Below are positions 17,115 through 35,657 of a stretch of 64,000 bases of DNA, in pieces (position 1 is the stretch's first letter; every line of letters begins with the position of its first letter). The notes beneath the pieces were generated by a model. That model had not been told where the DNA came from, made no database searches, and saw only the letters and a program-made list of their open reading frames with translations. This DNA is from a virus. Lineage: Duplodnaviria; Caudoviricetes. The stretch covers positions 6,716 through 70,715 of IMG/VR virus record IMGVR_UViG_3300009709_000299. The stretch is one strand, 5' to 3'. Made by a program: the position numbers and the translations under genes.

Positions 17115-17888
17115 ATGGAAGATAATCATTTTGTTATAATAAGCCCATTTTATAATGCAGGTTCTTTTTTAGAAGGTTGTGTTAATTCTATTTTAACTCA
17201 AAAATACAGCAATTTTAAAGTTATTTTTATTGATGATGCATCTACAGATGGTTGTACTGATGTTGAATGGTTTAAAAATTTAAAATTTGACTCAAGGGTT
17301 ATTTCAATTAAAAATTCTGTTAATTTAACAGCATTAGAAAATATTCATAATTGTATTATGAATTATTGTAATCCTAATGATATAGTCTGTTTAGTAGATG
17401 GAGATGATAAATTATCTAATAGAAATGTTTTATCTCATTTAAATGAAGAATATAAAAAATATGATCCTTGGTGTTTATATGGTTCTAGTAAATGGTCTGA
17501 TGGTAGAAGTTGTATCTCTAGACCTTATACAGAAAATGATTTTAAAAATAATATACGATTAGCACCTTTAAAAATATCTCATTTAAGAACATTTCGTGCA
17601 TCTTTTTATCAAAAAATAAAAGAACAAGATCCAAATTTTTCTTGTATGAAGGATAAAGATGGCAAATTTTATCGTATAGCTTATGATGCTGTCATGTTTT
17701 TAAATATGTTTGATATGGTTAAACCAGAAAATTTTAATAAAATTAAACATAATAGTAGTATTCTTTATCTCTATAATAGAGAAAATCCTATAAGTGATGA
17801 TAAAATCAATCAATATGGACAAACAAATACCCATATAGAAGTGGCTAAAAAGAATAGAATGAAAAAAATTGATAATATTAATTTATAA
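17115..17888 (+). CDS. Glycosyltransferase family 2
   Basis: IISPFYNAG, FIDDASTDG and VDGDD (DxD) motifs. Confidence 0.88.
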   Translation: MEDNHFVIISPFYNAGSFLEGCVNSILTQKYSNFKVIFIDDASTDGCTDVEWFKNLKFDSRVISIKNSVNLTALENIHNCIMNYCNPNDIVCLVDGDDKLSNRNVLSHLNEEYKKYDPWCLYGSSKWSDGRSCISRPYTENDFKNNIRLAPLKISHLRTFRASFYQKIKEQDPNFSCMKDKDGKFYRIAYDAVMFLNMFDMVKPENFNKIKHNSSILYLYNRENPISDDKINQYGQTNTHIEVAKKNRMKKIDNINL

Positions 17889-17891
17889 TTT

Positions 17892-18131
17892 ATGTATAAT
17901 ACATTATGTCCTTCTTGTAAAAGAGAAATTCATTTTGAATATAAACGTTGGAATTTAAAAATGCAATGTTCTAATTGTAAATCATATTTATTATTTGATT
18001 TTGATATGATATATGATCAAGAATTAAATGAAGAATTTGATGTTCCTACTATGATTTTATTAAAAGATTATCAAGAATTTTTAACCCATGAATTTACACA
18101 ACAAATAGAATGTAATTTAGGTAATTTATGA
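17892..18131 (+). CDS. Small zinc-ribbon protein
   Basis: CPSC...CSNC pair in 79 aa. Confidence 0.6.
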   Translation: MYNTLCPSCKREIHFEYKRWNLKMQCSNCKSYLLFDFDMIYDQELNEEFDVPTMILLKDYQEFLTHEFTQQIECNLGNL

Positions 18132-18850
18132 ATATAATTACAATAATAGTAAATCATAATAATAATGATAATGCAATCAATTTAAAAAATATTTTCTCTA
18201 AATTTGGAAATTGTTTTTTAATAGATTCTGGTTCTAATATTATTTTAGATGAATTTGATTACACATTGGAAAATGTGGGATATTCAGGTCTTTTTAATAG
18301 ATCAGTGGAATTATTTTTTGAAAAAGGTGGAGATATTCTTAATTTTATTTGTTCTGATGTAATTATAAATAAAAAAGAAGCAGAGAAATTAATTAATACT
18401 TTAACGAACCTAACTGAAGATGATAATATTGGAGTATATTCACCTTCTTCTTCTGGTCAAAGTCATAAACATTGTAAAAATTATAATTCTAATTCTTTAA
18501 GAGATGTTGTTTTTGTAGAAGGTTTTATGTTTGCTGCAAAAAAAGAAATATTAGAAGAAATATATCCAGTTGATACAAAAATCAATAGTTTAGGACATGG
18601 TTTAGATGCTTATAAAGGATTTTTATGTTTAAAAAAACATATGAGATGTGTAATTGATGATAATGTTAAAGTTTTTCATCCTCCAGGAACAGGATATAAT
18701 ACTAATTTAGCATCTATCCAATTTATAAATTGGATGAAACAAGCTTCTATGAAAGATTTTATGAAATTTTGGTATGATTATTCAGAGAAAAATTTTGCAG
18801 ATTCAGAAAAAACATTAATGGAATATAATTATAATAAAAAAATGAATTAA
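18128..18850 (+). CDS. Divergent GT2-like (GT-A) glycosyltransferase
   Basis: IIVNHNN, LIDSGS, NVGYSG, ICSDV and VIDDNVKVFH pattern; ATGA overlap with the upstream gene. Confidence 0.6.
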   Translation: MNIITIIVNHNNNDNAINLKNIFSKFGNCFLIDSGSNIILDEFDYTLENVGYSGLFNRSVELFFEKGGDILNFICSDVIINKKEAEKLINTLTNLTEDDNIGVYSPSSSGQSHKHCKNYNSNSLRDVVFVEGFMFAAKKEILEEIYPVDTKINSLGHGLDAYKGFLCLKKHMRCVIDDNVKVFHPPGTGYNTNLASIQFINWMKQASMKDFMKFWYDYSEKNFADSEKTLMEYNYNKKMN

Positions 18851-18862
18851 TGAGATTTATTT

Positions 18863-19264
18863 ATGATAGAAAACAAATTTATTTTAAAAAAATATAACAC
18901 TATTGATGATATAATTTTATCGCCATATCATGATGGTGATATAAATAAAGAAGATATAGATGGACTTGTTGGTTTTGATTTAGAAGGAAATGAACACGAA
19001 TTTTCTTTTGAAGAATATAAAAACTATTTGATACAACAAGGATATTGGGGATGGGTTGATAATAATAATGTAATTCATTATTGGGTTGGAAATCCTGATG
19101 TTTCTATAGAAGAGTTATTATTTTTCTTTGGTCATGAAATTGGTCATCGAATAGGTGAGCCGTTAGAAAATGAAGTGGAAGAAGAAAAGAGAGCTAATGA
19201 ATATGGACTTGTTGCTGAATTAGCATATAAATTTGCAACTCTAGAAAAAAATAATATCAAATGA
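18863..19264 (+). CDS. HExxH metallopeptidase-like protein (ImmA/IrrE-like)
   Basis: FFFGHEIGHRIG followed by EEEKRANEY. Confidence 0.55.
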   Translation: MIENKFILKKYNTIDDIILSPYHDGDINKEDIDGLVGFDLEGNEHEFSFEEYKNYLIQQGYWGWVDNNNVIHYWVGNPDVSIEELLFFFGHEIGHRIGEPLENEVEEEKRANEYGLVAELAYKFATLEKNNIK

Positions 19265-19878
19265 TATCAGTAATAATGGCCTCATATCTTGGATACTATC
19301 CAGGAGCAGCTACAAATAGAGAAAAAAAATTTATAAGAGCAGTAGATTCTTTTTTAACACAAAATTTTGAATCAAAAGAGTTAATTATAGTTTCTGATTG
19401 TTGTGATATTACTGAAAAATTATATCAAGAATATTATAAACAGTATAATAATATTATTTTCTTTAAATTAAAGAAAAAACAAGCTCCATTTTCTGGTTCT
19501 ATTAGAACATGTGGACTATCACTAGCAAATGGAGATAAAATCTGTTATTTAGATACAGATGATTTTTTTGGTGAAGATCATTTAAAAAATATTAATAATC
19601 AATTTACAGATGATGTAAAGTGGGTTTTTTATGATGATTACTTGGTAAGTAATTTTATAGATTTAAATAATTTTTCTAATTCAATTAGAATTAATGAAAT
19701 TATAGAAACGAGAATAGGAACATCAACAATTTGTCATTTAAATTCTATAAATGAAACTTGGGATGATGGTTATGGACATGATTGGAAATTTGTAACTAAA
19801 TTGGTTAAATATCCATTTAAAAAAATAATTAATACATCATATAATGTATGTCATATTCCAAATCAAATTGATGTTTAA
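19261..19878 (+). CDS. Glycosyltransferase family 2
   Basis: ISVIMASY, LIIVSD, YLDTDD and YGHDW motifs. Confidence 0.85.
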   Translation: MISVIMASYLGYYPGAATNREKKFIRAVDSFLTQNFESKELIIVSDCCDITEKLYQEYYKQYNNIIFFKLKKKQAPFSGSIRTCGLSLANGDKICYLDTDDFFGEDHLKNINNQFTDDVKWVFYDDYLVSNFIDLNNFSNSIRINEIIETRIGTSTICHLNSINETWDDGYGHDWKFVTKLVKYPFKKIINTSYNVCHIPNQIDV

Positions 19879-19889
19879 AATGATGTTAA

Positions 19890-20687
19890 ATGAAAAAAAT
19901 TGATATATATTGTAGTTTTAATTTGAATGTTCAATTAGAACATGAAAAACAAATTGAATTATATGTTGATTGTATTCCAAATACAAAAAAAATAAGTGAT
20001 TCCATTAGGATTGTATTATTGATTGAACCAATCGAAATTCTTGATTTGACTAATAATGCTATGATGTATATGAAAAGGGGATATTATGATTTTTTATTAA
20101 CTCATAATGATTTTTTATTAGAAAACTGTCCAAATTCTTTTTTATTTGAATATGGTACTACTTGGATAAATAATTATAAATTTAAAAATAAAAATTTTGG
20201 TGTTTCTGCTTTAGTTGGAGGGAAAACTATGGCTCCTGGTCATTTATTAAGACATCTATTATGGAATAAACAAAATGAAATAAAGATACCAAATATATTT
20301 TATTCTAGTGGAAATTTTGGTGGTATTCCTAATATAAATAATAATCCAGTTTTGGGAAGTAATAAAGAACCATTATTTGATACCCAATATCATATTTGTA
20401 TTGAAAATTCTAAAAGAAAAAATTGGTTTACTGAAAAAATAATAGATTGTTTTCAAACAAAAACAATTCCAATTTATTGGGGTTGTACCAATATTGATAA
20501 TTGGTTTGATATAAATGGAATTATTTCTTTTGATAATTTAGAAGAATTGTTTTATAAAATAAATTTATTAAAAGAAGATGATTATATTTCTATGCAAGAA
20601 GCTATAGAATATAACTTTAATGTATCTCAAAAATTTGTTAATTTTGCAGATAGAATTAAAGAAAAAATTCTAGAAATTGTAAAATGA
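19890..20687 (+). CDS. GT10 (alpha-1,3-fucosyltransferase-like) glycosyltransferase
   Basis: ICIENS...FTEKIIDCF..KTIPIYWG matches the GT10 core motif. Confidence 0.8.
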   Translation: MKKIDIYCSFNLNVQLEHEKQIELYVDCIPNTKKISDSIRIVLLIEPIEILDLTNNAMMYMKRGYYDFLLTHNDFLLENCPNSFLFEYGTTWINNYKFKNKNFGVSALVGGKTMAPGHLLRHLLWNKQNEIKIPNIFYSSGNFGGIPNINNNPVLGSNKEPLFDTQYHICIENSKRKNWFTEKIIDCFQTKTIPIYWGCTNIDNWFDINGIISFDNLEELFYKINLLKEDDYISMQEAIEYNFNVSQKFVNFADRIKEKILEIVK

Positions 20688-22264
20688 CATTTCATAAATC
20701 TATTTCAATTTATGCATCACATGATGCTTCTATTGCTATAAATCCAGCACCAGGAATATATCGAATCTTTGAATTTGAAAGACTTCTTAAAGAACGTTAT
20801 TGCAAAATTAATGATCATCCTAAATTTGAAGAAGCTTGTCAATTCATTTTTAATGAAATAAAGAAAGAATATCATCTTAATGATTTTGATATTTGTTATT
20901 TTGGAAGAATAAATTCTGGTAATTCAATAAATGAAAAAAATATATTAACTAAGGTTTTTGGAATAAAAAAATTTATAGATTGTGGGCATCATATAGCACA
21001 TGCTGCATCAGCTTTATATCAAAGTCCATTTGATGAATCAATAATTTTTTCTATTGATGGTGGTGGTTGGGATGAAACCAATGAAGTAACTATGTTTAAT
21101 ATTTATTTAGCTAATAAAAAAGAAAATACAATTACAAAAATAGCTCAATCTCATTTGGATGTTGGGAATGCATATTCTTTGATTTCAATGCCAATTAAAG
21201 AAATAAGAAATGGTAATTATCTTTCTTATGCTGGTAAAATTATGGGATTAGCTGCTTATGGAAAAGTAAGACAAGAATGGGTGTCTGCAATAAGAGCGTT
21301 TTATTTAAAACAACAATTTTTAGGCATTGAATTTAAACAATTAACTGAGTTAGGTAACAACATAGGTTTAGATTTGTCCACTTATGATACTATAAGTGGA
21401 CAAGATAGTTATGATTTAGCTGCAACTTCACAATATATTTTTGAAGAAATTGTATTATCAATTATAAATCCATATATAAATAAATACAAATTACCAGTTT
21501 GTTTAACTGGAGGTTGTGCATTAAATGTTCTGTTTAATGATAGATTAAAAAAAACTATATCTTATCCTATTTTTGTTCCTCCAAATCCAAATGATTGTGG
21601 AATATCTTTAGGACAATTATTATTTAATGAGCCACCAAATTGTGTAGTTGATGTTACTTATAATGGATTTGATATTTTAGATAAAGAAAATTTGTCACAA
21701 TATGTTATTGATTATAATGCACAAAAAGTAACAATTAATGAAATTGCAAAATTATTAATAAATGGTAAAATAATTGGAGTAATAAGAGGTAAATCAGAAT
21801 GTGGTCCACGAGCCTTGGGAAATCGAAGCATTATTTGTGATCCAAGTTTTCCTGATATGAAAGATATTTTAAATCATAAAGTAAAATTCAGAGAATGGTT
21901 TAGACCATTTGCACCAATTGTAAGAGAAGAAGAGGTTGATAAATATTTTGAATTTAATGGTGATGCAAAATTTATGTCTTATTCGCCAAAAACAAAAATA
22001 GAGTGGTTGGAAAAATTAAAATCAATTGTTCATGAAGATACAACTTCTAGAGTACAAACTGTTACACAAAATCAAAATAAATATATTTATGATCTCATAA
22101 CTGAAGTTGATAAACTTAAAGGAATAGGAATAATTTTAAATACTTCCTTTAATATTAAAGGAAAGCCAATTCTAACCACTATAGAAGATGCTTTAGAAGT
22201 ATTAAATACTACAGAACTTGATTATATTTTAGTTGAAGATTTTTTATTTAAAAAACAACAATAG
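20684..22264 (+). CDS. O-carbamoyltransferase (NodU/CmcH family)
   Basis: HDASIA, HHIAHAASA, GKIMGLAAYG, GGCALNV, GPRALGNRS, REWFRPFAP, LNTSFN. Confidence 0.93.
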   Translation: MTFHKSISIYASHDASIAINPAPGIYRIFEFERLLKERYCKINDHPKFEEACQFIFNEIKKEYHLNDFDICYFGRINSGNSINEKNILTKVFGIKKFIDCGHHIAHAASALYQSPFDESIIFSIDGGGWDETNEVTMFNIYLANKKENTITKIAQSHLDVGNAYSLISMPIKEIRNGNYLSYAGKIMGLAAYGKVRQEWVSAIRAFYLKQQFLGIEFKQLTELGNNIGLDLSTYDTISGQDSYDLAATSQYIFEEIVLSIINPYINKYKLPVCLTGGCALNVLFNDRLKKTISYPIFVPPNPNDCGISLGQLLFNEPPNCVVDVTYNGFDILDKENLSQYVIDYNAQKVTINEIAKLLINGKIIGVIRGKSECGPRALGNRSIICDPSFPDMKDILNHKVKFREWFRPFAPIVREEEVDKYFEFNGDAKFMSYSPKTKIEWLEKLKSIVHEDTTSRVQTVTQNQNKYIYDLITEVDKLKGIGIILNTSFNIKGKPILTTIEDALEVLNTTELDYILVEDFLFKKQQ

Positions 22265-22270
22265 TAATTT

Positions 22271-23125
22271 ATGAGATATATTATTGTTGCAAAAAATGTT
22301 TATCAAGGAGATTCAGTAAACGATGTTCCTAATCCTTTGGAAGTAACAGAAATAGCTACTGAGTTAATTATTACCAGACTTAAATTGATTGATCTATTAC
22401 AAACTGGACAAATTACTAAAGAAGATTGTGTAGTTACTGTTGAAGAAAGAAAATGTTTATATACAAAATTTTTTAATAATGTTATAGATTATCAATATTT
22501 TTTGACTTTAAATGTTCATGAAAATAGTATTATTGATTTGTTAGAAATAGGCGTTTTTCATAGAATGGCAGGTGGAAATGTTTGGGAAAGAGAAATACCA
22601 TATAAACCATTTTATCAGAATTGGGAACGAGATAAAAATTTAATAACTAATGTTGATTGGAGTAATGTATCTGATTATGATTTATCTAAACCTTTTGTGG
22701 CATTAGTTATTAGAAAAAGAGGAGCCTGGACAGAAAAAAATATGTCTCATGAATTTTGGGTTGATTTATTGTCAAAATTATATGATAACAACATTTCAGT
22801 GTTTGTTTTTGGAAAAGAAACAAATATATTTTCTAATGATAAAGTTCAATATATAAAAAATTATCAAGATTGGTGTACTATAGTTAAACACAAAAATTGT
22901 AAACATGTATGTTCCACTATGACAGGTGGGGTATATCCTTGTTTAATTTTTGGTAATAGCAATACTGAAATGACTATTATAGATAATACATTTTTAATGT
23001 CAAAACATGGAGGAGATCCATCTTTTTATGATAATTGTATTAACTTTTCAAAAATTAAAATAGAATTTATAAATTATATTCCTACAACAGAAGAATTATA
23101 TGGAAAAATTACAACAGGTCTATGA
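22271..23125 (+). CDS. Hypothetical protein, possibly a GT-B (GT9-like) transferase
   Basis: 284 aa within the glycan operon; VALVIRKRGAW...FWVDLL...VFVFGKE loosely resembles a GT9 C-terminal domain. Confidence 0.4.
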   Translation: MRYIIVAKNVYQGDSVNDVPNPLEVTEIATELIITRLKLIDLLQTGQITKEDCVVTVEERKCLYTKFFNNVIDYQYFLTLNVHENSIIDLLEIGVFHRMAGGNVWEREIPYKPFYQNWERDKNLITNVDWSNVSDYDLSKPFVALVIRKRGAWTEKNMSHEFWVDLLSKLYDNNISVFVFGKETNIFSNDKVQYIKNYQDWCTIVKHKNCKHVCSTMTGGVYPCLIFGNSNTEMTIIDNTFLMSKHGGDPSFYDNCINFSKIKIEFINYIPTTEELYGKITTGL

Positions 23126-24371
23126 TTATATTGTAATAGGTGGTGGCTTTACAGGTGTTGCAGCTTTAAGAAGATTACAACAACTTGGTATTAATAACAC
23201 AATATTATTGGAAAGCGAACATGAATCTGGTGGTTTATGTAGGACTAAAATTGTAGATGGTCATTATCTTGATATAGGTGGTGGTCATGTATTACATTCT
23301 AAATATCAAGATGTATTAGATTGGATATTTGATCACATTCCACAAAGTGATTTTAATAAATATGATACAAAGGTTTTAATTGATTTAGAAGGTAATCCTG
23401 TAGAATTTCCTATAGAATTAAATTTATGGCAATTACCAACAGATCTTCAAATAGAATATTTATATAGTTATTTGACTGCAGCTTGTAAAGATGTAAAATA
23501 TGAAAATTTTGAATCTTGGATAAGAAATTATCTTGGCGATAAAATTGCAGACAATTATATGATTCCATATAATAAGAAATTATGGTGTGTTGATATTGCA
23601 AAATTAAATACAGATTGGTTAATTAAAATTCCTGAAACTGATATTAAATTAGTTCTTAGAACAATTGTTGAAAAAAAATCTAATTTTACAGAAAGAATAG
23701 TTAGTCATAAATCATTTTATTACCCTAAATATGGAGGTTTTCAAGCTGTTTTTGATGCTATTAAAAAAACTGTAAATGATAAAATTGAATTAAATGTTGA
23801 TGTTAAAACGTTAAGATATGATAAAGAAAATCAACTATGGTATATCAATGAAAAATATATTACTAAAAAAATAATTAACACAGCTCCATGGACTAAATTT
23901 GATATCCAAATTGAAGGATTTGATTATAAAAAAGAATTTGAAAATTTAGAGTATTTAAGTGATGTTATTTCTTTATGGGAACGGGAGCCATATACTCATA
24001 ATGCACATTGGATGTATATTCCAAATCCAGATGTAGATCAACATCGTGAATTTTATATTTGTAACTTTGCGCCATATAGTAAACCTGGTGGAGTTATGAC
24101 TGATATAAATAGAAAAAGATGGATTGATAATAATAAAATATGGAAGGCTGGCATTCCATTATATGAACATGAAAATATTTATTCTTATCCTTTACCTACA
24201 AAAATTTATAAAGAATCCATGAAAAAAATATTAAATTTTTCTAAAAATTACAATTTATTTGGCTTAGGACGTTGGGGTCAATGGCAATATTTTAATACAG
24301 ATCAATGTGTTAAACAGGTTCTTGACTTTTTTGATAATGAAAAAGAATTTGATTATTTTAAAATATTTTAA
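23100..24371 (+). CDS. FAD-dependent oxidoreductase, UDP-galactopyranose mutase-like
   Basis: VIGGGFTG dinucleotide fold, ESGGLCRT, DIGGGHV, YYPKYGG, GLGRWGQWQY. Confidence 0.7.
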   Translation: MEKLQQVYDYIVIGGGFTGVAALRRLQQLGINNTILLESEHESGGLCRTKIVDGHYLDIGGGHVLHSKYQDVLDWIFDHIPQSDFNKYDTKVLIDLEGNPVEFPIELNLWQLPTDLQIEYLYSYLTAACKDVKYENFESWIRNYLGDKIADNYMIPYNKKLWCVDIAKLNTDWLIKIPETDIKLVLRTIVEKKSNFTERIVSHKSFYYPKYGGFQAVFDAIKKTVNDKIELNVDVKTLRYDKENQLWYINEKYITKKIINTAPWTKFDIQIEGFDYKKEFENLEYLSDVISLWEREPYTHNAHWMYIPNPDVDQHREFYICNFAPYSKPGGVMTDINRKRWIDNNKIWKAGIPLYEHENIYSYPLPTKIYKESMKKILNFSKNYNLFGLGRWGQWQYFNTDQCVKQVLDFFDNEKEFDYFKIF

Positions 24372-24374
24372 ATT

Positions 24375-25154: not shown

Positions 25155-25369
25155 AAATTAAATTAAGATATAATACTAATAATAAGGATGATAAAAATCC
25201 ATGGAGATTATTAATTGATGATGTTGAACATTTAGTTCCTGCAGTTAAATTTATAGGTATAGATATTATAACAACAAAAGACAGAATAGAGGCTATTGGA
25301 GATAAATGGCATATTTCCTGTGAAGCTAATAAAATATTAATAAAAGACGATATTTGGGAGATTAGTTAA
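25151..25369 (+). CDS. Hypothetical protein
   Basis: 72 aa; ATGA-type overlap with the GT11 gene. Confidence 0.6.
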   Translation: MKIKLRYNTNNKDDKNPWRLLIDDVEHLVPAVKFIGIDIITTKDRIEAIGDKWHISCEANKILIKDDIWEIS

Positions 25370-25376
25370 AAAAATC

Positions 25377-25610: not shown

Positions 25611-25613
25611 AAT

Positions 25614-26719: not shown

Positions 26720-26725
26720 AAATTT

Positions 26726-27616: not shown

Positions 27617-28529
27617 AAAAAAGATAGTGTTAGTAACAGGTGGAAATGGCTTGGTTGGTAAGTATTTACAAGATATTATGCCTGATGCAATATACCTTTC
27701 ATCTAAAGATGGTGATTTAAGAGATTATATTCAAACAGAAGCAATTTTTGAAAAATATAAACCAGATGTTTTAATACATTTAGCTGCTAAAGTAGGAGGA
27801 ATTATAGAAAATTTAAAATTACCTTCTGATTATTTAGAATTTAATATTGCAATGAATTCAAATGTTTTAAAATGCGCCTTGAAATATAAAGTAAATCATG
27901 TTATTGCGATGTTAAGCACTTGTATATTTCCAGATCGTTTAAGTGATGATAAATATCCGTTAACTCTTAAAAATCTTCATGATTCTGCACCTACTGAAGC
28001 TAATTTTTCTTATGGTTATGCAAAACGATGTTTATCAGTTCAAATAAGTTGTTATAACAAACAATATGGTACTCGTTGGAATTGTATTACACCACCAAAT
28101 TTATATGGTATATATGATCAATTTGAAAATCATGATAAGGCTCACTTTGTTACAGCATTATTAAAAAAAATAAAAGTAGCTAAAGATAATAATGATGATT
28201 TTATTACTCTATTTGGAACAGGTACTCCACTTAGACAATTTTTATATGCTAAGGATTTAGCTAAGGCAATAAAAATATCAGTAGATCAAGATATTAGAGA
28301 AGATTTTGTAGTTGCTCCACCAGAAAACATTTCTATTAAAAAAATAGCAGAAATAGCTCTTAAAGCATGTGATGCAGAACATTTAAAAATAAAATTTGAT
28401 ATTACAAAACCAGATGGACAATTTAGAAAAGATGTCAAAAATTCAGATGATTTATTACCCAATTTTCAATTTACAAAATTAGAAGAAGGCTTAAAAGAAA
28501 CTTTTGGATATATAGATTCAATAAAATAA
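27606..28529 (+). CDS. GDP-4-keto-deoxysugar epimerase/reductase (Fcl/WcaG family; probable ColC GDP-L-colitose synthase)
   Basis: VTGGNGLVG, LAAKVGGI, LSTCIFP, YGYAKR, PNLYG, GTGTPLRQF, KPDGQFRK. Fucose versus colitose specificity inferred only from the neighbouring ColD-like gene. Confidence 0.88.
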   Translation: MENKKKIVLVTGGNGLVGKYLQDIMPDAIYLSSKDGDLRDYIQTEAIFEKYKPDVLIHLAAKVGGIIENLKLPSDYLEFNIAMNSNVLKCALKYKVNHVIAMLSTCIFPDRLSDDKYPLTLKNLHDSAPTEANFSYGYAKRCLSVQISCYNKQYGTRWNCITPPNLYGIYDQFENHDKAHFVTALLKKIKVAKDNNDDFITLFGTGTPLRQFLYAKDLAKAIKISVDQDIREDFVVAPPENISIKKIAEIALKACDAEHLKIKFDITKPDGQFRKDVKNSDDLLPNFQFTKLEEGLKETFGYIDSIK

Positions 28530-28532
28530 TGT

Positions 28533-29165
28533 ATGATTAATTCTTTTTTTGATAAAATTTATTGTATAAATCTTGAAAAGCGTAAAGACCGTTTAGAAAA
28601 ATGTAATCAAGAATTTATAAAACATAGATTAAATGTAGATATATTTAAAGCTATTGATGGTAATAGTTATGATACATCTAATATGTTTGTTAATCCAACA
28701 ATTGAAAAAGGTAATGTAGGCTGTGTACTTTCTCATTTAAAAATCATACAAGATGCTCAACATAAAAATTATGATAAAATACTTATTCTTGAAGATGATA
28801 TTATTTTTGATAATGAATTAAATAAAAAATTTGAACAATATATAAAAGAATTACCCCATGATTGGGATATGTTATATTTTGGAGGAAACCATAATTTTCA
28901 TACAGGTCATAAATTAGATATGATATCTGAACATATTGGAAAATGTAAATTAACATATACTACACATTCTTATGCTATACGAAATACTTTTTTTCAAAAA
29001 GTAATCAATAAATTTCAAAATATAACACACCCAGTAGATGTATTATATACACAGCTTCAATCTGAAAATAATATTTATACTTTTTATCCTGGTATTAGTT
29101 CACAACGATCAGGTTATTCAGATATTTTAAATCAAGATATTGATTATTCTGAATATATAAAATAG
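28533..29165 (+). CDS. Glycosyltransferase family 25
   Basis: IYCINLEKRKDR, FKAIDG, GCVLSH, ILEDDI. Confidence 0.9.
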   Translation: MINSFFDKIYCINLEKRKDRLEKCNQEFIKHRLNVDIFKAIDGNSYDTSNMFVNPTIEKGNVGCVLSHLKIIQDAQHKNYDKILILEDDIIFDNELNKKFEQYIKELPHDWDMLYFGGNHNFHTGHKLDMISEHIGKCKLTYTTHSYAIRNTFFQKVINKFQNITHPVDVLYTQLQSENNIYTFYPGISSQRSGYSDILNQDIDYSEYIK

Positions 29166-29214
29166 CTTGATTTTTTTTATATGGTTAATTATATTTTTTT
29201 TAAAATATAACTAT

Positions 29215-30402
29215 ATGGAAAAAGAACCAATTAATTTAACTTTTAACACTATCGATCATCAAGATAAAGAGGCTTTATGTGATTTTTTAATGACAAATGA
29301 TCAATGGAGTAAAGGACCAGAAACTGTTGCTTTTGAAAAAGAGTTCAGCGAATTTTTAGGTTCTAAAAATTCTGTTTTTTGTAATTCAGGATCATCTGCT
29401 ATATTATTAATGTTATATACATTAATTATAGGTAAAAAAATGAAAAATAATAAAGTGGTTTTATCTGCATGTTCATGGAGTACAGATTTATCAAGTATTA
29501 TACAACTTGGATTAGAACCAATATTATGTGATGTTAATGATAAAGATTTAAGTGTTTCATTAGTTGAGTTAGAAAAAATTTTTATACAAGAATCTCCTTC
29601 TGTATTATTATTAGTTTCTGCTCTAGGGTTAGTACCAAAAATGGATGAAGTTGTTGAATTATGTAAAAAATATGGAGTTCTTTTATTAGAGGATGTTTGT
29701 GAATCATTGAATTCATCATTCAACAATAAAAAGCTTGGTACTTTTGGTATTATGTCATGTTTTAGTTTTTTTTATTCACATCATTTTACAACTATAGAAG
29801 GTGGAATGGTATGTGTAAATGAAAATATTGGTGAAAATGAAGAAGAATTATATCAAATATTATTATCATTACGTTCTCATGGTTGGACAAGAGATAATTC
29901 AGAATCATATAAACAACAAATGAAAAATAAATGGAATACTGATTCATTTAATGATATGTATACTTTTTATTATCCAGGATTTAATTTAAGATCTACTGAT
30001 TTACAAGCTTTTATAGGTAGAAGGCAATTAAAAAAAGCAGATAAAATGTGTGAGGTAAGATATAAAAATTATCTACTTTATAAAAAATATTTAAAAACAG
30101 AATGGTTACCACAAGAACATGATAATACTTTTACATCTAATTTTTGTTTTCCTATTCTTCATGAAAAAAGAGATGAAATAGTAGAAGCTTTATTAAAAAA
30201 TAATATTCAATGTAGACCTTTGATAGCTGGTAATTTAGGAGTACATCCTGTATATATTGAAAGATATGGAAGAACAGATAGTAATATAATGAGTAATGCA
30301 GATTATATACATAAGTATGGTTTATATATTCCAAATAATCATTCTCTTACAGAAGATCAGATTATTTTTATATGTTCAATCATAAATGAATTTTGTAATT
30401 AG
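29215..30402 (+). CDS. PLP-dependent GDP-4-keto-6-deoxymannose 3-dehydratase (ColD-like, DegT/DnrJ family); start revised to ATG 29215
   Basis: NSGSSA, EDVCES, and SFFYSHHFTTIEGG with His where aminotransferases of this family carry the PLP lysine, the ColD/E1 dehydratase signature; HGWTR and PGFNLRSTD also match. Confidence 0.8.
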   Translation: MEKEPINLTFNTIDHQDKEALCDFLMTNDQWSKGPETVAFEKEFSEFLGSKNSVFCNSGSSAILLMLYTLIIGKKMKNNKVVLSACSWSTDLSSIIQLGLEPILCDVNDKDLSVSLVELEKIFIQESPSVLLLVSALGLVPKMDEVVELCKKYGVLLLEDVCESLNSSFNNKKLGTFGIMSCFSFFYSHHFTTIEGGMVCVNENIGENEEELYQILLSLRSHGWTRDNSESYKQQMKNKWNTDSFNDMYTFYYPGFNLRSTDLQAFIGRRQLKKADKMCEVRYKNYLLYKKYLKTEWLPQEHDNTFTSNFCFPILHEKRDEIVEALLKNNIQCRPLIAGNLGVHPVYIERYGRTDSNIMSNADYIHKYGLYIPNNHSLTEDQIIFICSIINEFCN

Positions 30403-30407
30403 AAATA

Positions 30408-30435
30408 TACTTTTATAAAATGATTTATAAAAGTA
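30408..30435 (+). terminator. AT-rich hairpin after the glycan operon
   Basis: TACTTTTATAAA / TTTATAAAAGTA with a 4-nt loop; weak because it has almost no GC pairs. Confidence 0.4.
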
Positions 30436-30474
30436 AAAAAAATAATTTAAATTTGTAAAATTTGGTATGAAAAT

Positions 30475-32028
30475 ATGAAGATAGAAAAATTGAGTAAGAA
30501 AGATTTAGAATATATAAAATCAACCTATTATAATAAATCACTTTCTTATGGTCAAAGAATAGATGAGTTAATTAAATTTTTTGGTAAATCTGAACGTACT
30601 GTAAGAAGATATTTAGTTTCTTTAGGATTTAAAGAAAAGCAAAATATTGAATCTGAACAATTTAAAAAAGCTAAAGAAAAAAAATTTGATAAACGTAAAA
30701 AATGTTTTATTATAACTTGGGCTCAAAATTCTACTCCTGTTCATGATGGTTTTCTAAAAAATATTGAAGCATATGCAGAATATATCAATGCTTCAATACA
30801 TTGTATTTGTGGAAGATATAATAATCAAAATCAAAAGTTAGAAAATAATACACCTGATACTTGGGATAAAAAAATAGAAAAATACCTAGATGCATCTAGA
30901 CATCATATACATAAACATATATCAATTTTAGCTGATATAAAAATTCAACCTACTGCTGTTAGCCCTTTAACTTCACTAGAATCTTTAACTGAAAATAGTT
31001 CTGCTATTGTTGGTCATCCTAGAGTACATATGAAATCAATGCCTGTTATTGATGTTGAACATCCTAAAATGTTATTTTCTACAGGCTCTATTACTAAACC
31101 CAATTTTACAGATAGTCGTTCAGGTCGTATTGGAGAGTTTCATTTTGTTTATGGTTTTGTAGTTGTAGAAATTAAAGATGATGAAACTTATTTTATAAGA
31201 CAAGTAACTGCAGATTCAAATGGTGATTTTAATGATCTTTATTTTAATGTTAAAAATGGAAACATATCACGTATAGATAGTACTTTAGCTTTAATTAAAG
31301 GTGATTTACATTATGGAAGTCATGATGAAAAAGTTTTAGAACGTTCTTTTTCTGAATTAATTCCTAAAATAAAACCAGAAAAAATATTTTTACATGATAT
31401 TTTTGATGGTATTTCAGTAAATCCACATATTACTTCATTAAGTGAAATGTATTTTAATGAAATTCATGATAAAAATAATATAAAAAAAGAAATAAATGTA
31501 TTATTAGAATTTTTAAATACAATAAAACATTATAATTTATATGTTGTTTTTTCTAATCATGATGATTTTTTAACTAGATTTATAAATAATGGTGATGTTA
31601 AAAAAAATATAAAAAATGCAGTAGAATATATGGAATATGGTAAAATTTTGTTGGAGGGTAATGCTCCAAAAGGAATTATACCATATATTATAAATAATAA
31701 ATTTCCTAAAATAAAATGTTTAGGTAAAGATGAAAGCTTTAAAGTAAAAGGTTGGGAATGTTCTATGCATGGACATTATGGTTCTAATGGCAGCAAAGGA
31801 AGTGTTCAACAATTTAGAAAATTAAATACTAAAACTATTACTGCTCATGGACATGGGGCTTTTAGATTTGATGGAGCTGTTCAAGTAGGTACAAATTCTA
31901 AATTGAAATTAAATTATACACAAGGACCATCTTGTTGGGTACATGCAGATGCTATTATTCATAATGATGGAAAATGTCAATTAATCATATTTTCAGGACC
32001 TGATAGAGAATATACTACTTTTGAATAA
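30475..32028 (+). CDS. HTH-fused calcineurin-like metallophosphoesterase/nuclease (possibly T5 A1-like)
   Basis: N-terminal HTH (KSERTVRRYL); GDLH, LHDIFDG, SNHD, MHGH and AHGH metal-binding motifs. The A1 relationship is recalled, not searched. Confidence 0.75.
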   Translation: MKIEKLSKKDLEYIKSTYYNKSLSYGQRIDELIKFFGKSERTVRRYLVSLGFKEKQNIESEQFKKAKEKKFDKRKKCFIITWAQNSTPVHDGFLKNIEAYAEYINASIHCICGRYNNQNQKLENNTPDTWDKKIEKYLDASRHHIHKHISILADIKIQPTAVSPLTSLESLTENSSAIVGHPRVHMKSMPVIDVEHPKMLFSTGSITKPNFTDSRSGRIGEFHFVYGFVVVEIKDDETYFIRQVTADSNGDFNDLYFNVKNGNISRIDSTLALIKGDLHYGSHDEKVLERSFSELIPKIKPEKIFLHDIFDGISVNPHITSLSEMYFNEIHDKNNIKKEINVLLEFLNTIKHYNLYVVFSNHDDFLTRFINNGDVKKNIKNAVEYMEYGKILLEGNAPKGIIPYIINNKFPKIKCLGKDESFKVKGWECSMHGHYGSNGSKGSVQQFRKLNTKTITAHGHGAFRFDGAVQVGTNSKLKLNYTQGPSCWVHADAIIHNDGKCQLIIFSGPDREYTTFE

Positions 32029-32095
32029 AATATATATAAAAAAAATATTATCTTTTATCTTATGAAAGACAAAACGTAAATTTTGGCTTAATGCT

Positions 32096-32374
32096 GTGTT
32101 TGATGGATTTGATGAAATGTGTAGGCGTTTAAAAGAAAAAAATGAAAATGAAATAAAAATCAATAAAATAGAAATTAAAATTGGAACTATTTTAAAAATT
32201 AAAGATAATAGAGAAAAAAATAATTTTGGAGTAAGTGAATTTTTAGTAACATTCGTAGATGATGATTCTTTTATTGTACAGGGTGAAGGTGTAACTTGGT
32301 GGTGGCATAAAAAAATGTTAACTCCATTTATTGGAAATGCTACTATTTTAGAAATAATGAATAATATAGAATAA
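32096..32374 (+). CDS. Hypothetical protein
   Basis: 92-aa ORF; start uncertain (the frame is open a few codons further upstream; an out-of-frame ATG lies at 32062). Confidence 0.55.
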   Translation: MFDGFDEMCRRLKEKNENEIKINKIEIKIGTILKIKDNREKNNFGVSEFLVTFVDDDSFIVQGEGVTWWWHKKMLTPFIGNATILEIMNNIE

Positions 32375-32388
32375 ATATACATTTGAAT

Positions 32389-33108
32389 ATGAAAAAAAAA
32401 ATAGGAATTAATATTGATGGTATTTTAAGAAATTACCTAGATAAATTTGAAAAGGTTTATATATCTACTTATATTAGTAATCCAAGTATAGTAGATACTA
32501 CAGATGAGTTTCAATATAAAGAACTTACAGAAGAGGAAGCTGAAAAAAAAGCTTTAAAAATTCAAGAAGAAATAAAAAAAAGAATTAAAAAACCTTTTGA
32601 TTCATATGACTTATTAAATCACTTTTATTTTGAATCAGGTGAAAATTATCTTGGAGAACAAGTTGATCCTCAAGGTAAATTATCTGAATTTTTATATGAA
32701 TTAAAAACTTTTCCAATATTTGGTCAAGCAGAACCATTTCCAGGTTCATTTAATGCTTTACATGAATTACAATTACAAGGAAGAGAATCTGATGCATTTG
32801 ATATAATTTTATTATCTCATTTAAATAGTAAAGCTATAACTGCAACTTATACATTTTTGGGTAATAATGGTTGTAGAGCTAAAAACATTAAATTTGTAGA
32901 TTATGATTATGAAAAATGGGAATATTGTGATGTATTAATTGATATTGCTCCTGAATCATTTCAAACTAAGCCTGAAGGAAAATTATCTGTTAAAATTGAA
33001 CAACCTTATAATATTTGGGATTCTACTGATTATTCTTTTTCATCTTTGAAAGATTTAATAAAAAATAAGGAATTTATTGAAGATATTATAAAATTTTGTA
33101 AAAATTAA
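32389..33108 (+). CDS. HAD-fold 5'(3')-deoxyribonucleotidase-like protein (start revised to ATG 32389)
   Basis: IGINIDGILRN motif I, AEPFPG, KWEYCDVLID, QPYN; the first motif-I Asp is replaced by Asn. Confidence 0.7.
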   Translation: MKKKIGINIDGILRNYLDKFEKVYISTYISNPSIVDTTDEFQYKELTEEEAEKKALKIQEEIKKRIKKPFDSYDLLNHFYFESGENYLGEQVDPQGKLSEFLYELKTFPIFGQAEPFPGSFNALHELQLQGRESDAFDIILLSHLNSKAITATYTFLGNNGCRAKNIKFVDYDYEKWEYCDVLIDIAPESFQTKPEGKLSVKIEQPYNIWDSTDYSFSSLKDLIKNKEFIEDIIKFCKN

Positions 33109-33116
33109 AAAAAATA

Positions 33117-33473
33117 TTGAATATGATTAAATTAAACAGTCTATCAGAAATAGACAATTCAACTAAAGAAGGAAAAATATTACTTGCTGCTATTTCTTTA
33201 ATTAAGAAATCAAATGATCATTCTGATGATTTTATTTTAAATAATTTAAATGAAATAGTTAATGATATGTTTATATCTCCTGAACAAAAGTTAAAAAAAG
33301 ATATTCAAAATATAATTTTTGATAATGTTATTAATAAATATTATAATCAAAAAACTGGAAAGCCTGTTGAAACTTATGATGAAATACCAACTATATTTCA
33401 TGATGCTATTAATAAAAATCTTGATGATTTGATTCTAGTATTAAAAAGTTTTGGAATCTTTCAACAAAAATAA
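33117..33473 (+). CDS. Hypothetical protein
   Basis: 118-aa ORF ending at a terminator. Confidence 0.6.
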   Translation: MNMIKLNSLSEIDNSTKEGKILLAAISLIKKSNDHSDDFILNNLNEIVNDMFISPEQKLKKDIQNIIFDNVINKYYNQKTGKPVETYDEIPTIFHDAINKNLDDLILVLKSFGIFQQK

Positions 33474-33503
33474 AAAAGAGCTTTAAAAAGCTCTTTTTTA
33501 TTT
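33468..33503 (+). terminator. Intrinsic terminator
   Basis: AAATAAAAAAGAGCTTT / AAAGCTCTTTTTTATTT inverted repeat. Confidence 0.75.
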
Positions 33504-33568
33504 AAAAAAACATTTTTTTCACTTTAATTTTATTTTTATCCTGATTATATTTTTTTAAAAATAAAAAT

Positions 33569-34741
33569 ATGTCAGAATTACAAATTTCGATTTTAAATGA
33601 GACTATACAAAAGCTTAAAAATAGAGAATTTTCTATTTATGTATATTCTCCTGGACAAGTATTTCAGTCTGGTGGAATTAACTTATTGTATAGAATGTGT
33701 AGAATTTTAAAAGATAATGGTTTTAATGTTAAGGTTTTGTATGAAGCTAAAATAGATGAGAGAGCTAGCGCACAAGCAACATTAAAAGCTCAAAAAAAAG
33801 TTAATATTTTTCAAAAAATGAATTTTGATTGGATGGATGTTAATGTATCTGATTTAGAATTTATTCCACAAGCAGGAGAGGCTACTGAAATAATATATTC
33901 AGATGGAACAAAAGAAAAAATAAAACCACTGTCAATTGGAGTTGAAGATTTTTTAATTATACCAGAAGGTTTTGGAAATATTATAGCTCAAACAGTTAAT
34001 TTAACATGTAAAAGAATTGTATTAGCACAATCTTGGTTATATATATTAAACAGTTTAAATCCATCTCAAACTTGGTCTAATCTTGGAATAAAAGATGTAA
34101 TTAGTATAAGTGATGTAGTTACTAATTATATTAAATCTATTTTTCCTGCAGTTAATATAAAACAATTCGATCAATCAATTAATAGAAATTTATTTAATGT
34201 TCCAACTAAAATTTCTCATAAACAACCTATTGTATTATTTAATGCTAATAGAGGTCCTGAAAGTAGAGCTGTAGCGTATTCAGTTATACGTACTTTTCAA
34301 GAGTGGTTTCCTCACTATAAATGGGTAAAATTTATTGAAATGTCAGGATTATCAAAAGAAGAATATGCAAATAGAATGAAAGAAGGTTCTATTTTTATGT
34401 CATTTGATTCTGTTGGAGCATTTTCAACAAGTTCATTAGAAGCAATAGCATCTGGAACTTTAAATATATCATATTTGGCATATGGACCATCACAATATGC
34501 TAATCAAAATAATGGATATTGGATTCAAAATGGAGATGCATTTCAAATGGCTGAAACCCTTGGAGCAGTAGTGGATAGATTATTTAATGGTGTATATGAT
34601 AATAATCCTGAAATTCAAAAAGCTTATGAAGAAACTTTATCAAGATATACAGAAGAAAAAGAACAAGAAGCAATTTTAAAAATTTACAACGAATATATAA
34701 ACGAAAGAATAAATGAACTTACAAATTTCCAAACAAAGTAA
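33569..34741 (+). CDS. GT-B (GT4-like) glycosyltransferase
   Basis: SGGINLLY, IIPEGF, VLAQSW, SLEAIASG motifs. Confidence 0.75.
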   Translation: MSELQISILNETIQKLKNREFSIYVYSPGQVFQSGGINLLYRMCRILKDNGFNVKVLYEAKIDERASAQATLKAQKKVNIFQKMNFDWMDVNVSDLEFIPQAGEATEIIYSDGTKEKIKPLSIGVEDFLIIPEGFGNIIAQTVNLTCKRIVLAQSWLYILNSLNPSQTWSNLGIKDVISISDVVTNYIKSIFPAVNIKQFDQSINRNLFNVPTKISHKQPIVLFNANRGPESRAVAYSVIRTFQEWFPHYKWVKFIEMSGLSKEEYANRMKEGSIFMSFDSVGAFSTSSLEAIASGTLNISYLAYGPSQYANQNNGYWIQNGDAFQMAETLGAVVDRLFNGVYDNNPEIQKAYEETLSRYTEEKEQEAILKIYNEYINERINELTNFQTK

Positions 34742-35654
34742 TACCTTAATTAATCTATTTGTAGATTCAGAAGGTTTAAAGAATGAAAATGATTTAAATA
34801 ATTGTTTGTATAGTATTGCTAAACAAATAAAAAAAGTTGATTTAATAATATTATATAATTCTTTAACAACAGAAGAATTAGAAAAATTACAATCTATTAT
34901 TGAAAATCCTATTTTAAAATTACCAAAACAACAAGAAGATGGTTCTATTATTATAGAAGAAATTAAACTTTTAGAAAATGAATTATTAAATGCTCAATTA
35001 ATAAAAACAAATGCTGATAATTTTTCAAAAATTTTTAATGAAGGATTTAATTACTCTTTAGATAATAATTATGAATTCTATTCTGTAATAGAACAAGAAG
35101 ATAGTTTTGCTATTCATTGGTTTAATACTACTATGATTTATTTTGATGAAAATCCAAATATTTCTGTATTTGTACCATTAATTAGAAATAATGTTAATGG
35201 AACATTTTCAGGTTTTATTAATGAAGCTTCTATGGTAGAGGGTTTGGCAGAAGAATTTGGTCAATATGATATAGCTCTTTTATTACGATACAATGTTATT
35301 AATCCATTAGGAGCTGTTTATAAAGTATCTTCAATTAAAGAATATTCTGAACAAAAATCTGATGGTAAATTTTATCCATATAAAGAATCAATAAAAATTA
35401 CTCATTCTTATGAATTCTTTTTGAGAATGATTTATAATGATTTGAAAATAAAAACTATTCCACGTATTGGTTATGAACTAAAATTAATAAATAAAAATAT
35501 ATATTTATCAACTTCATCAAAAACACCTCAAAATATTGCAATAATACCTACAGAAAAAGGAGGTATTAATGTAAAGGAACTTCAATTTTATCTTGAACTT
35601 GCTAAAAAAGAATATTTCTTTGATACAGATAGAAATGTAATATTTAATCAATAA
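34713..35654 (+). CDS. Divergent GT-A (GT2-like) glycosyltransferase
   Basis: CLYSIAKQ, FNEGFNY, IEQEDSF, SYEFFLRM pattern of GT2-like folds. Confidence 0.6.
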   Translation: MNLQISKQSNTLINLFVDSEGLKNENDLNNCLYSIAKQIKKVDLIILYNSLTTEELEKLQSIIENPILKLPKQQEDGSIIIEEIKLLENELLNAQLIKTNADNFSKIFNEGFNYSLDNNYEFYSVIEQEDSFAIHWFNTTMIYFDENPNISVFVPLIRNNVNGTFSGFINEASMVEGLAEEFGQYDIALLLRYNVINPLGAVYKVSSIKEYSEQKSDGKFYPYKESIKITHSYEFFLRMIYNDLKIKTIPRIGYELKLINKNIYLSTSSKTPQNIAIIPTEKGGINVKELQFYLELAKKEYFFDTDRNVIFNQ

Positions 35655-35657
35655 AAC

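Follow-up and report, generated by a model that had tools for sequence, protein, structure and literature searches.

Why does a large phage carry, between the genes for its head and those for its baseplate, a long run of genes for building a complex glycan, and to what is that glycan attached? The question is raised by a 64,000-nucleotide stretch of viral DNA (hereafter the window; positions 6,716 to 70,715 of IMG/VR record IMGVR_UViG_3300009709_000299), in which an island of approximately 18 kb (17115–35654) encodes glycosyltransferases (GTs) and sugar-tailoring enzymes. Comparison with related genomes shows a module kept throughout the clade, in which a constant core is combined with cassettes that are exchanged, and the evidence supports its description as a phage-encoded glycan-assembly module composed of soluble enzymes only. 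The proteins of the phage's own particle are our best guess for the acceptor, narrowly and with less than an even chance of being right; this reading and remodelling of the host envelope stand close to a tie, which sequence alone cannot break.

The window encodes a phage with a T4-type major capsid protein (MCP) of the Gp23 kind (E=1e-69, with the Gp23 alignment reaching MCP residue 546 of 555) and an S77 prohead protease, both identified by domain and family searches. The source record is a 70.7-kb IMG/VR fragment with a CheckV completeness of 22%; approximately 78% of this phage's own genome is unsampled, and whole-genome absences were tested in relatives. The MCP has 70 relatives in IMG/VR at 41–75% identity (short partial matches reach 88%). 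Complete or near-complete relatives are G001 (complete; 388.6 kb, rounded to 389 kb), G002 (372 kb), G003 (519 kb, with terminal repeats), G004 (291 kb) and G005 (233 kb); four of the five are at least 91% complete. Because the complete relatives span 291–519 kb, the jumbo-phage label of the first-pass annotation is reasonable.

All window proteins were searched by tblastn against 60-kb regions of G001–G004. The island lies at the same place in all four genomes, flanked on one side by the head module (MCP, scaffold, protease, a 270-amino-acid (aa) protein, a GT4 enzyme and PhoH) and on the other by a conserved late block that opens with a homologue of gene 36605 and continues into baseplate genes. 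The clade core comprises the GT2 at 17115, the GT10 at 19890, the GT11, an Fcl/ColC-like short-chain dehydrogenase/reductase (SDR), the ColD-type enzyme, the protein at 32383, a GT-B enzyme, a GT-A enzyme and a probable sigma factor. In 28 of 28 loci the genes for the last three adjoin or overlap one another, and here a 95-nt gap with a hairpin parts them from the genes upstream. Other genes come and go: three of the four relatives carry an A1-like gene, the block encoding a carbamoyltransferase, a GT9-like protein and a UDP-galactopyranose mutase (UGM)-like protein is found among them only in G003 (44–84% identity), and the GT25 gene and the genes at 18128–19878 occur in none of the four. The islands of the relatives amount to 20–33 kb per genome and hold extras that include a true GDP-mannose 4,6-dehydratase (GMD; E=4e-145), more SDRs and DegT enzymes, FkbM methyltransferases, B12-radical-SAM enzymes, NeuB and a GT17. 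The conservation in related jumbo phages that the first-pass annotation had proposed to look for is thus present.

Two further kinds of gene were seen in the islands of relatives. One open reading frame (ORF; among L077–L088) matches Tad3, a type I Thoeris inhibitor (E=2e-27), and GIY-YIG/NUMOD homing endonucleases occur in the islands of two relatives, one of them at the edge of the G001 island (L077:11231–11875).

These comparisons bear directly on an alternative that the first-pass annotation had kept in view, that a bacterial polysaccharide locus was passively captured and has no role for the phage. The enzyme families are indeed typical of bacterial loci, and three tiny ORFs at 25151–25790 are possibly remnants. 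Against capture stand the syntenic arrangement, with core genes that are 38–56% identical in relatives whose capsid proteins are 65–73% identical, and the intactness of every assigned gene. The GC content at third codon positions (GC3) is 0.087 in the island and 0.086 in the structural genes, and because the two are equal the island is not a recent capture. The carbamoyltransferase had a single relative, 30% identical, in a pattern-based scan of 185,579 bacterial and archaeal species genomes that detects close relatives only. Passive capture is already largely refuted, and we regard it as extremely improbable.

Gene assignments were made with Pfam, NCBIfam and PDB searches, with AlphaFold2 (AF2) models compared by Foldseek, and with a protein-atlas comparison. 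All ORFs from 17115 to 36569 lie on the + strand, separated by a few bases or overlapping, and four of the overlaps are of the ATGA type, in keeping with the same-strand cluster described at first pass. The family and PDB searches likewise agree with most of the enzymes named there: GT2 (PF00535 is matched by two genes), two GT10, GT11, GT25, a carbamoyltransferase, a UGM-like flavoprotein, two SDRs and a ColD-like enzyme.

The island opens with the clade-core GT2 (17115–17888; PF00535, E=3e-14), which has 45–54% identical homologues at the island edge in G001–G004. A variable cassette follows, with three ORFs at 17892–19264 (79 aa and zinc-ribbon-like; 240 aa, at 18128; and 133 aa and acidic, at 18863) that have no Pfam or NCBIfam match and no homologue in G001–G004, the ORF at 18128 also lacking relatives in IMG/VR, and with a second GT2 (19261–19878; PF00535, E=1e-12), also without a homologue in these four genomes. 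The core GT10-type enzyme, of the α-1,3/4-fucosyltransferase family (19890–20687; PF00852, E=3e-5), has 39–51% identical homologues in all four relatives, and its paralogue (25877–26719; 32% identity by BLASTP, E=6e-27) is 62% identical in G003. The GT11 of the α-1,2-fucosyltransferase family (24375–25154; PF01531, E=1e-27), present in four of the five relatives tested, is a candidate fucosyl- or colitosyltransferase; its closest homologues are 74–76% identical. The GT25, of the lipooligosaccharide (LOS)-type β-1,4-galactosyltransferase family (28533–29165; PF01755, E=7e-23), belongs to the variable part and has no homologue in G001–G004 or IMG/VR.

The tailoring enzymes give the glycan its probable chemistry. 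The ColD-type enzyme (29167–30402), of the DegT family, is a clade-core, pyridoxal/pyridoxamine phosphate (PLP/PMP)-dependent nucleoside diphosphate (NDP)-4-keto-6-deoxyhexose 3-dehydratase (E=2e-59 with PDB entry 2gms, ColD; 47–52% identical homologues in all four relatives). Its 'FYSHH' aligns with the 'FYSHH' of ColD, in which the catalytic His replaces the PLP Lys of aminotransferases and which reads 'FYSNH' in the mutant of PDB entry 3b8x. Upstream lies a core GDP-fucose-synthase-like SDR of the Fcl or ColC type (27606–28529; NF047922 Fcl, E=1e-47; 38–56% identical homologues in all four relatives), which scores 163 bits against the Fcl model, whose equivalog cut-off is 500, and fits either ColC or Fcl. 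The second SDR (26726–27616; PF01370, E=4e-20; LegB-type model, E=2e-16; 73% identical in G003) is divergent and may be an NDP-sugar dehydratase, epimerase or reductase; no protein of the window, this one included, reaches the GMD models. The NodU/CmcH-type O-carbamoyltransferase (20684–22264; PF16861, E=8e-61; PF02543, E=6e-23; NodU model, E=2e-48) has homologues of 44–47% identity in G003 alone among G001–G004. Tailoring with a ColD-type deoxysugar and with carbamoyl groups is well founded. The UGM-like flavoprotein (23100–24371; full-length match to TIGR00031, E=2e-16), a putative source of a furanose sugar donor, is much closer to the eukaryote-type UGMs of Aspergillus and Trypanosoma in the PDB (E=1e-28) than to Glf of bacteria, for which E lies between 1e-9 and 1e-6, and its 84% identity to the G003 protein exceeds that of the capsid protein there (65%).

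Two possible places for a GT9 enzyme were considered. The protein at 22271–23125 (68% identical in G003) is a GT9-like, heptosyltransferase-type GT-B candidate through a protein-atlas lead, with a feature score of 0.96 to a GT9-named cluster and a TM score of 0.63 to a cluster that is 100% PF01075; it has no Pfam match. The protein at 34713–35654 is a strictly core enzyme present in 28 of 28 loci, whose confident AF2 model (pLDDT 89.6, pTM 0.90) has a GT-A, GT2-like fold, with SpsA, the WrtF fucosyltransferase and TarP as Foldseek neighbours (E ~1e-10). It is therefore a glycosyltransferase but not a GT9, a family with the GT-B fold. The 'possible GT9' of the first-pass annotation accordingly fits only the first of these proteins.

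The neighbouring GT-B enzyme (33569–34741), also strictly core and present in 28 of 28 loci, is of the Agt/AmGGT kind, as indicated by a profile of 23 homologues searched against the PDB (8xsg, E=3e-23); it gave no match among annotated phages. The gene after the GT-A enzyme (35658–36569), not a glycan gene and the last of the block, is likewise found in 28 of 28 loci and encodes a probable divergent phage sigma factor, an assignment drawn from the atlas (0.98 to phage sigma-factor clusters) and from weak Pfam matches, Sigma70_r2 being matched by 7 of 24 family members (best E=4.5e-4); the family has no match in the PDB.

Within the block there are also genes of other kinds. A protein resembling the pre-early A1 'DNA transfer' protein of T5 (30475–32028; phrog_1745, E=1e-137) has homologues in 1132 phage records, annotated as A1 or DNA transfer protein. 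It is followed, after a 354-nt gap (32029–32382) that holds short ORFs only, on either strand, by two ORFs (32383–33473) of 241 aa (32383, clade-core) and 118 aa (33117) and then by a GC-containing hairpin with a T-run. The 32383 family profile found nothing significant in the PDB, and a HAD-like N-terminal motif in this family could not be confirmed. No homologue was found for the three small ORFs at 25151–25790 (72, 77 and 58 aa, the last with a poly-Asn run) or for a 92-aa ORF in the 354-nt gap; both places may be remnants of lost cassettes.

The absence of membrane machinery reported at first pass extends to the whole clade. In a hydropathy scan no ORF of the island has more than two hydrophobic segments, so that none encodes a polytopic membrane protein, and none of 124 ORFs in the islands of four relatives has more than one. 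The complete G001 genome encodes no protein with eight or more transmembrane segments, the maximum being a 1093-aa protein with six C-terminal segments. The phage thus appears to supply no Wzx, Wzy, WaaL, WecA, WbaP or oligosaccharyltransferase (OST)-like protein; the flippase, polymerase, chain-length regulator and initiating transferase that could not be recognized in the island were not found in the relatives' islands or in G001 either, and the locus is not a complete O-antigen or capsule locus.

One more glycosyltransferase lies outside the island, among the head genes. The gene at 10195–12624 (− strand) encodes a GT4-type GT-B enzyme split by a LAGLIDADG intein (Pfam LAGLIDADG_3, Glycos_transf_1 and Glyco_transf_4). 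At least 37 related loci have a homologue next to the MCP or other head genes; the intein insert recurs in the homologue of locus L043 (823 aa), and approximately 30 other homologues are intein-free (409–475 aa). The AF2 model of the intein-free G001 homologue (pLDDT 88.4) has a GT-B/GT4 fold, with GlgM, BshA and PglA (E=1e-15 to 1e-11) and also HepE, MshA and a chlorovirus GT (PDB entry 3oy2) as structural neighbours. The GT4 assignment made at first pass therefore stands on both domain and model evidence. The neighbours are generic GT4 enzymes, and the fold does not reveal the acceptor.

Transcription signals set this gene and the island apart. A T-run followed by (A/C)TATTTAT(A/T) stands 10–45 nt upstream of 15 genes (16 motif copies, intergenic and in gene orientation); the window has 63 occurrences, and the 16 so placed compare with about 2 expected on a rough estimate in which intergenic DNA makes up 5.5%. 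The sites so placed are spread over 104–60701, and the motif-bearing genes include those for the scaffold, the protease, the head-module GT4 (45 nt upstream, its neighbours also bearing the motif), fibre-type proteins and conserved proteins beside the baseplate gene. Both genes that flank the island carry it, 17028 (−) and 36605 (+); the first copy downstream of the island (36585–36593, +) lies 11 nt before gene 36605, whose homologue has the motif in G001–G004. In the complete G001 genome, 48 of 123 occurrences are at most 60 nt upstream of ORFs, and 45 of these 48 fall in the 0–215 kb half, which holds the head and baseplate genes. From this distribution we infer that the motif is the late promoter of the clade, and the product of 35658 is a candidate late-transcription factor for it. 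A second motif, TAnnTTTG, which we take to be the Bacteroidota housekeeping −7 promoter consensus, is commoner in the 220–388 kb half of G001, which is rich in small ORFs. A match to it, TATATTTG (17102–17109, +), precedes the first island gene by 5 nt. In G003 the distance from the motif to the first island gene is 19 nt. A further copy stands 19 nt upstream of the A1-like gene at 30475, which has one in G002 and G004 too. The T4 late promoter TATAAATA was weakly enriched and not positioned upstream of genes, and a generic sigma-70 and terminator scan over the island performed no better than chance (190 found versus 184 expected from shuffles).

The identities of the genes, the solubility of their products, the synteny, the core/variable structure and the promoter-motif pattern stand as observations. 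In the scheme that we infer for expression timing, pathway products and acceptor, soluble island enzymes would make unusual activated sugars and build a branched, capped oligosaccharide in the cytoplasm of the infected cell. The sugars would be a GDP-linked 3,6-dideoxy or 6-deoxy hexose, formed by the ColD-type dehydratase and the Fcl/ColC-like reductase, a furanose, formed by the UGM-like mutase, and a carbamoylated sugar. Non-late promoters would drive the island enzymes, so that donors and elongating and capping transferases (GT2, GT10, GT11, GT25, the Agt-like GT-B and the GT-A) are ready beforehand, and the head-module GT4 would perform a glycosylation step tied to head assembly. Core enzymes would produce a common glycan and swapped cassettes lineage-specific decorations, as in chloroviruses. 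In its fullest form, to which we give a little over a third of our belief, a whole clade of huge Bacteroidota-type phages would run an autonomous, chlorovirus-like cytoplasmic protein glycosylation: the late head-module GT4 would start or complete it on particle proteins, and a pre-late block of 20–33 kb would supply rare donors (colitose-type, furanose, carbamoylated, methylated and nonulosonic) and elongating transferases, giving virions a core glycan with lineage-specific outer decorations.

Several observations favour the particle as acceptor. There is no lipid-carrier machinery in the island, in the islands of relatives or in G001. The strictly conserved GT-B appears closest, by profile comparison, to AmGGT and Agt, which are soluble cytoplasmic enzymes. 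A GT4-fold enzyme sits inside the run of head genes in at least 37 loci, with an intein in two lineages and a late-type motif here. The island itself has a fixed position, a core-plus-cassette pattern, a size of 20–33 kb per genome and a GC3 like that of the structural genes, and the mixture found in relatives (GMD, FkbM, B12-radical-SAM and NeuB) resembles the capsid-glycan genes of chloroviruses and mimiviruses.

The weight on the other side is considerable. No gene start in 17115–36569 is preceded by the late-type motif, and the long same-strand islands of G001–G004 are almost free of it. If the motif is the late promoter, the island would be an early or middle unit between late modules, which fits the T5 A1-like gene inside the block and the probable sigma-factor gene at its end, directly before the first late-motif gene; given these two genes, the block does not appear to be co-regulated with virion proteins, and adjacency to capsid and fibre genes is not co-regulation. 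Suitable acceptor segments are also scarce. The Ser/Thr/Asn-rich segments that the first-pass annotation had seen in capsid and fibre proteins proved modest and confined to fibres: the MCP has no Ser/Thr-rich extension and its C terminus is not rich in these residues, and strong Ser/Thr tracts are absent, with at most 11 such residues per 20, in fibres only. An N-glycosyltransferase (NGT) of family GT41 (PF13844) was not matched in five relatives (the control was positive in 2 of 14 genomes), and G001 yielded no membrane protein of the OST type. Terminal capping enzymes (GT10, GT11 and the colitose genes), whose bacterial relatives act on lipid-linked lipopolysaccharide (LPS) or O-antigen intermediates, make up much of the conserved core, and distant homologues of the head-module GT4 in phAPEC8-like coliphages adjoin replication genes. 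We know of no T4-like phage shown to have glycosylated virions. What stands of the first-pass proposal, a branched, deoxysugar-capped and carbamoylated oligosaccharide on the virion, is the island of soluble enzymes with its ColD-type and carbamoyl tailoring; with no late motif and weak acceptor segments, its virion acceptor is not established.

Remodelling of the host envelope accounts for many of the same data, and we hold it to be a serious possibility that also falls short of even. Soluble transferases at the cytoplasmic face would add fucose- or colitose-type caps to lipid-linked intermediates of the host (lipid A-core/LOS, undecaprenyl-diphosphate-linked O-units or the Bacteroidota general O-glycan), and the products would be exported by the host's own MsbA, Wzx and ligase; the altered cell surface would lead to superinfection exclusion, or would mask receptors and so spare progeny from infected cells and debris. 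GT10, GT11, GT25, GT9-like, GT2 and ColD/ColC-type proteins are canonical enzymes of LPS, LOS and O-antigen synthesis. As a rule these enzymes are soluble or peripheral, and a glycan of the LOS type can be extended without Wzx, Wzy or an initiating transferase; since host export would suffice, the missing membrane genes are compatible with this reading too. The block, without the late-type motif, with the host-type TAnnTTTG and beside the A1-like and probable sigma-factor genes, suits it, and published accounts of equivalent clusters in cyanophages and large Bacteroidota phages interpret them in this way. It would depend wholly on host initiation and export, however, and 10–20 transferases with several sugar pathways in 20–33 kb go far beyond known seroconversion modules. 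The core is conserved across phages whose genome GC content ranges from 24% to 34% and which for that reason probably infect different hosts, another conserved GT is found among the head genes, and AmGGT, the nearest relative of the core GT-B with a solved structure, uses soluble acceptors.

Two other acceptors are less probable. A different cytoplasmic target is unlikely: here the GT-B/GT-A pair beside the probable sigma gene, alone or together with the other island enzymes, would glycosylate a host protein, a non-structural phage protein or a small molecule during host takeover, or make a free oligosaccharide. The tight association of the three genes in 28 of 28 loci, set off by the 95-nt hairpin gap, speaks for it, as do the acceptance of free oligosaccharides by AmGGT-type enzymes and the small-molecule GT4 enzymes (BshA, MshA and GlgM) among the structural neighbours of the head-module GT4; no candidate acceptor was identified, we know of no precedent in phages, and the many capping enzymes and sugar pathways point to a complex, surface-type glycan. 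Hypermodification of DNA, in which the transferases and the carbamoyltransferase would decorate a modified base as protection from restriction or CRISPR nucleases, is less likely still. It is favoured by the soluble enzymes in a non-late block and by a precedent, the addition of mono- to trisaccharides to 5-hydroxymethylcytosine by phage GTs related to LPS enzymes (Pyle et al. 2024, as cited). In the five relatives there is no C5 DNA methyltransferase (PF00145) and no TET/JBP match (PF12851, a search whose control was silent), and the only gene of the thymidylate synthase family (PF00303) in G001 encodes a bona fide ThyA, with the PCH cysteine, the Asn of PFNIASY and the C-terminal APVAI (E=2e-76 with Escherichia coli ThyA). 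Ten or more transferases, with fucosyltransferase families and a colitose-type pathway, also far exceed known DNA glycans. The check for hydroxymethylase or base-modifying genes that was suggested at first pass thus found no route to such a base in the relatives and lowers the standing of this alternative. The thymidylate synthases of relatives (L089–L092) are 370–439 aa long with insertions; in G002 and G004 the Pfam match falls into two parts, as would be expected of a gene interrupted by an inserted element.

Near-equivalent clusters are already known in T4-like cyanophages and have been noted in large Bacteroidota phages, and the first-pass annotation overstated the novelty of the island. 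At the nucleotide level, a megablast search with the island found no match among 50,697 phage records. The cyanomyoviruses P-SSM2, S-SCSM1, S-SCSM2R and S-SRM01 are likewise T4-like, with same-strand clusters of soluble GT2, GT10, GT11, GT25 and GT1/4 enzymes together with GMD, GDP-fucose synthase, NDP-sugar epimerases and FkbM. The 24 'LPS' genes of P-SSM2 form two clusters, S-SCSM2R encodes epimerases and 13 GTs, among them GT10, GT11, GT25, GT2 and GT1, and S-SRM01 has a same-strand run of ~13 kb with GMD, GDP-fucose synthase, a NodZ-type fucosyltransferase, GT2, FkbM, two α-1,2-fucosyltransferases and GT25. The island shares with such 'LPS' clusters of T4-like phages its several soluble GT families, its NDP-sugar genes and its homology to cyanophage enzymes: the GT11 has 37–39% identical homologues in 103 phage records, nearly all of the cyanophage type, and the ColD-like protein has 33% identical homologues in 71 records, 54 of them Synechococcus phages. 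The function of the cyanophage clusters is likewise unproven. The present clade is a different, uncultured one that probably infects Bacteroidota. Its island has a fixed position between the head genes and the late block and is bounded by a probable sigma gene, whereas the S-SRM01 cluster lies among photosynthesis auxiliary metabolic genes, and its additional enzymes are a ColD-type 3-dehydratase, a carbamoyltransferase, a UGM-like mutase and an Agt-like GT-B.

Moraphages are large aquatic jumbo phages with predicted Bacteroidota hosts and four core GT orthogroups, the role of which was left open (Arch Virol 2025, PMC12619734); the number of strictly core GTs in the clade described here is also four, and our MCP search and the moraphage tree agree in placing the Rhodothermus phage RM378 as a distant relative. 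The clade may be the moraphage lineage or a sister lineage. Large freshwater Bacteroidota phages that encode bS21 have many LPS and polysaccharide genes, which their authors read as surface remodelling (PMC9723584); unlike these phages, the relatives were not found to encode bS21. Neither paper describes island synteny, a core/variable structure or a promoter pattern.

Other known systems resemble parts of the island. Chloroviruses and mimiviruses have their own sugar-nucleotide pathways and soluble cytoplasmic transferases, use no lipid carrier, and make a conserved core glycan with lineage-specific decorations. These are eukaryotic viruses with experimentally proven virion glycans, whereas the particle is here a putative acceptor; the chlorovirus GT of PDB entry 3oy2 is a structural neighbour of the head-module GT4. 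Mycobacteriophages reportedly use only a few GT genes for their glycosylation. They share with the present phage soluble, phage-encoded transferases and the virion as hypothesized target, and the subunits reported to be glycosylated at their C termini are those of the capsid and tail tube (Freeman et al. 2023, as cited). Unlike theirs, the MCP here has no C-terminal Ser/Thr extension, and the island, which includes sugar pathways of its own, is roughly tenfold the size. The GDP-L-colitose pathway of E. coli O55 and O111 (GMD, ColD and ColC) is matched by the ColD-type enzyme with its catalytic His, the adjoining Fcl/ColC-like SDR and the GT11 nearby; in contrast to that pathway, no GMD is recognizable in the window (one relative's island has it), and the ColC role and the nucleotide carrier are putative. 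PDB entry 8xsg is AmGGT, a homologue, more than 50% identical to ApAgt, of the Agt of the NGT/Agt system of cytoplasmic protein glycosylation; AmGGT and Agt are soluble, and in the cytoplasm they add further sugars to those of glycopeptides or free oligosaccharides. A homologue of the Agt-type α-1,6-glucosyltransferase is present here (33569), and the initiating HMW1C/NGT enzyme was not found in five relatives. The polytopic proteins that a Wzx/Wzy-dependent locus requires were not found in the island, in the islands of relatives or in G001.

The remaining features of the window concern the wider genome. Its GC content is 24%, and it contains no tRNA genes. The head module also encodes a very acidic scaffold-like protein, a PhoH-like ATPase (14770–15537, +; E=4e-60) that is kept in G001–G004 sits between the head module and the island, and baseplate-wedge and fibre-like proteins are encoded 3' of the island. 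More distant MCP relatives are those of the Flavobacterium phage 'immuto', two uncultured huge phages and RM378; the TAnnTTTG motif, the Flavobacterium-phage relatives and the literature make a Bacteroidota host likely. Directly downstream of the MCP gene lies a 557-aa ORF with HTH_38, ROS/MucR and REase-like domains (2464–4137, −), with a TAnnTTTG motif 4 nt upstream; because it is found in just 21 of 70 MCP loci, it is probably a mobile or homing element. Two convergent fibre-like genes (52784–56440) have homologues only in L029 and L033 among the 70 MCP loci, and the fibre module appears to be highly variable.

What is new here is the clade-wide synteny, the defined core, the promoter-motif pattern and the adjacency to a probable sigma-factor gene, together with the intein-bearing GT4 of the head module and a chemistry marked by a ColD-type dideoxyhexose, carbamoylation and a eukaryote-like UGM. 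Whatever the acceptor, the enzymes are a resource for glycoengineering (a colitose-type pathway, a carbamoyltransferase, a eukaryote-like UGM and many small, soluble proteins of the fucosyltransferase families). Large phages repeatedly spend 5–10% of their genomes on complex glycans, the target of which in T4-like and jumbo phages is not known, and this clade provides a comparative handle: a fixed position, a small core (GT2, GT10, GT11, ColD/ColC-type enzymes, the Agt-like GT-B, the GT-A and the head-module GT4) and swappable cassettes. If the glycan goes to the host envelope, no lytic phage would be known to drive a more elaborate conversion of the cell surface. If it goes to the virion, environmental jumbo phages would join giant eukaryotic viruses and a few mycobacteriophages in having complex, self-encoded glycosylation of the particle, with a bearing on particle stability, grazing, adsorption and immune recognition.

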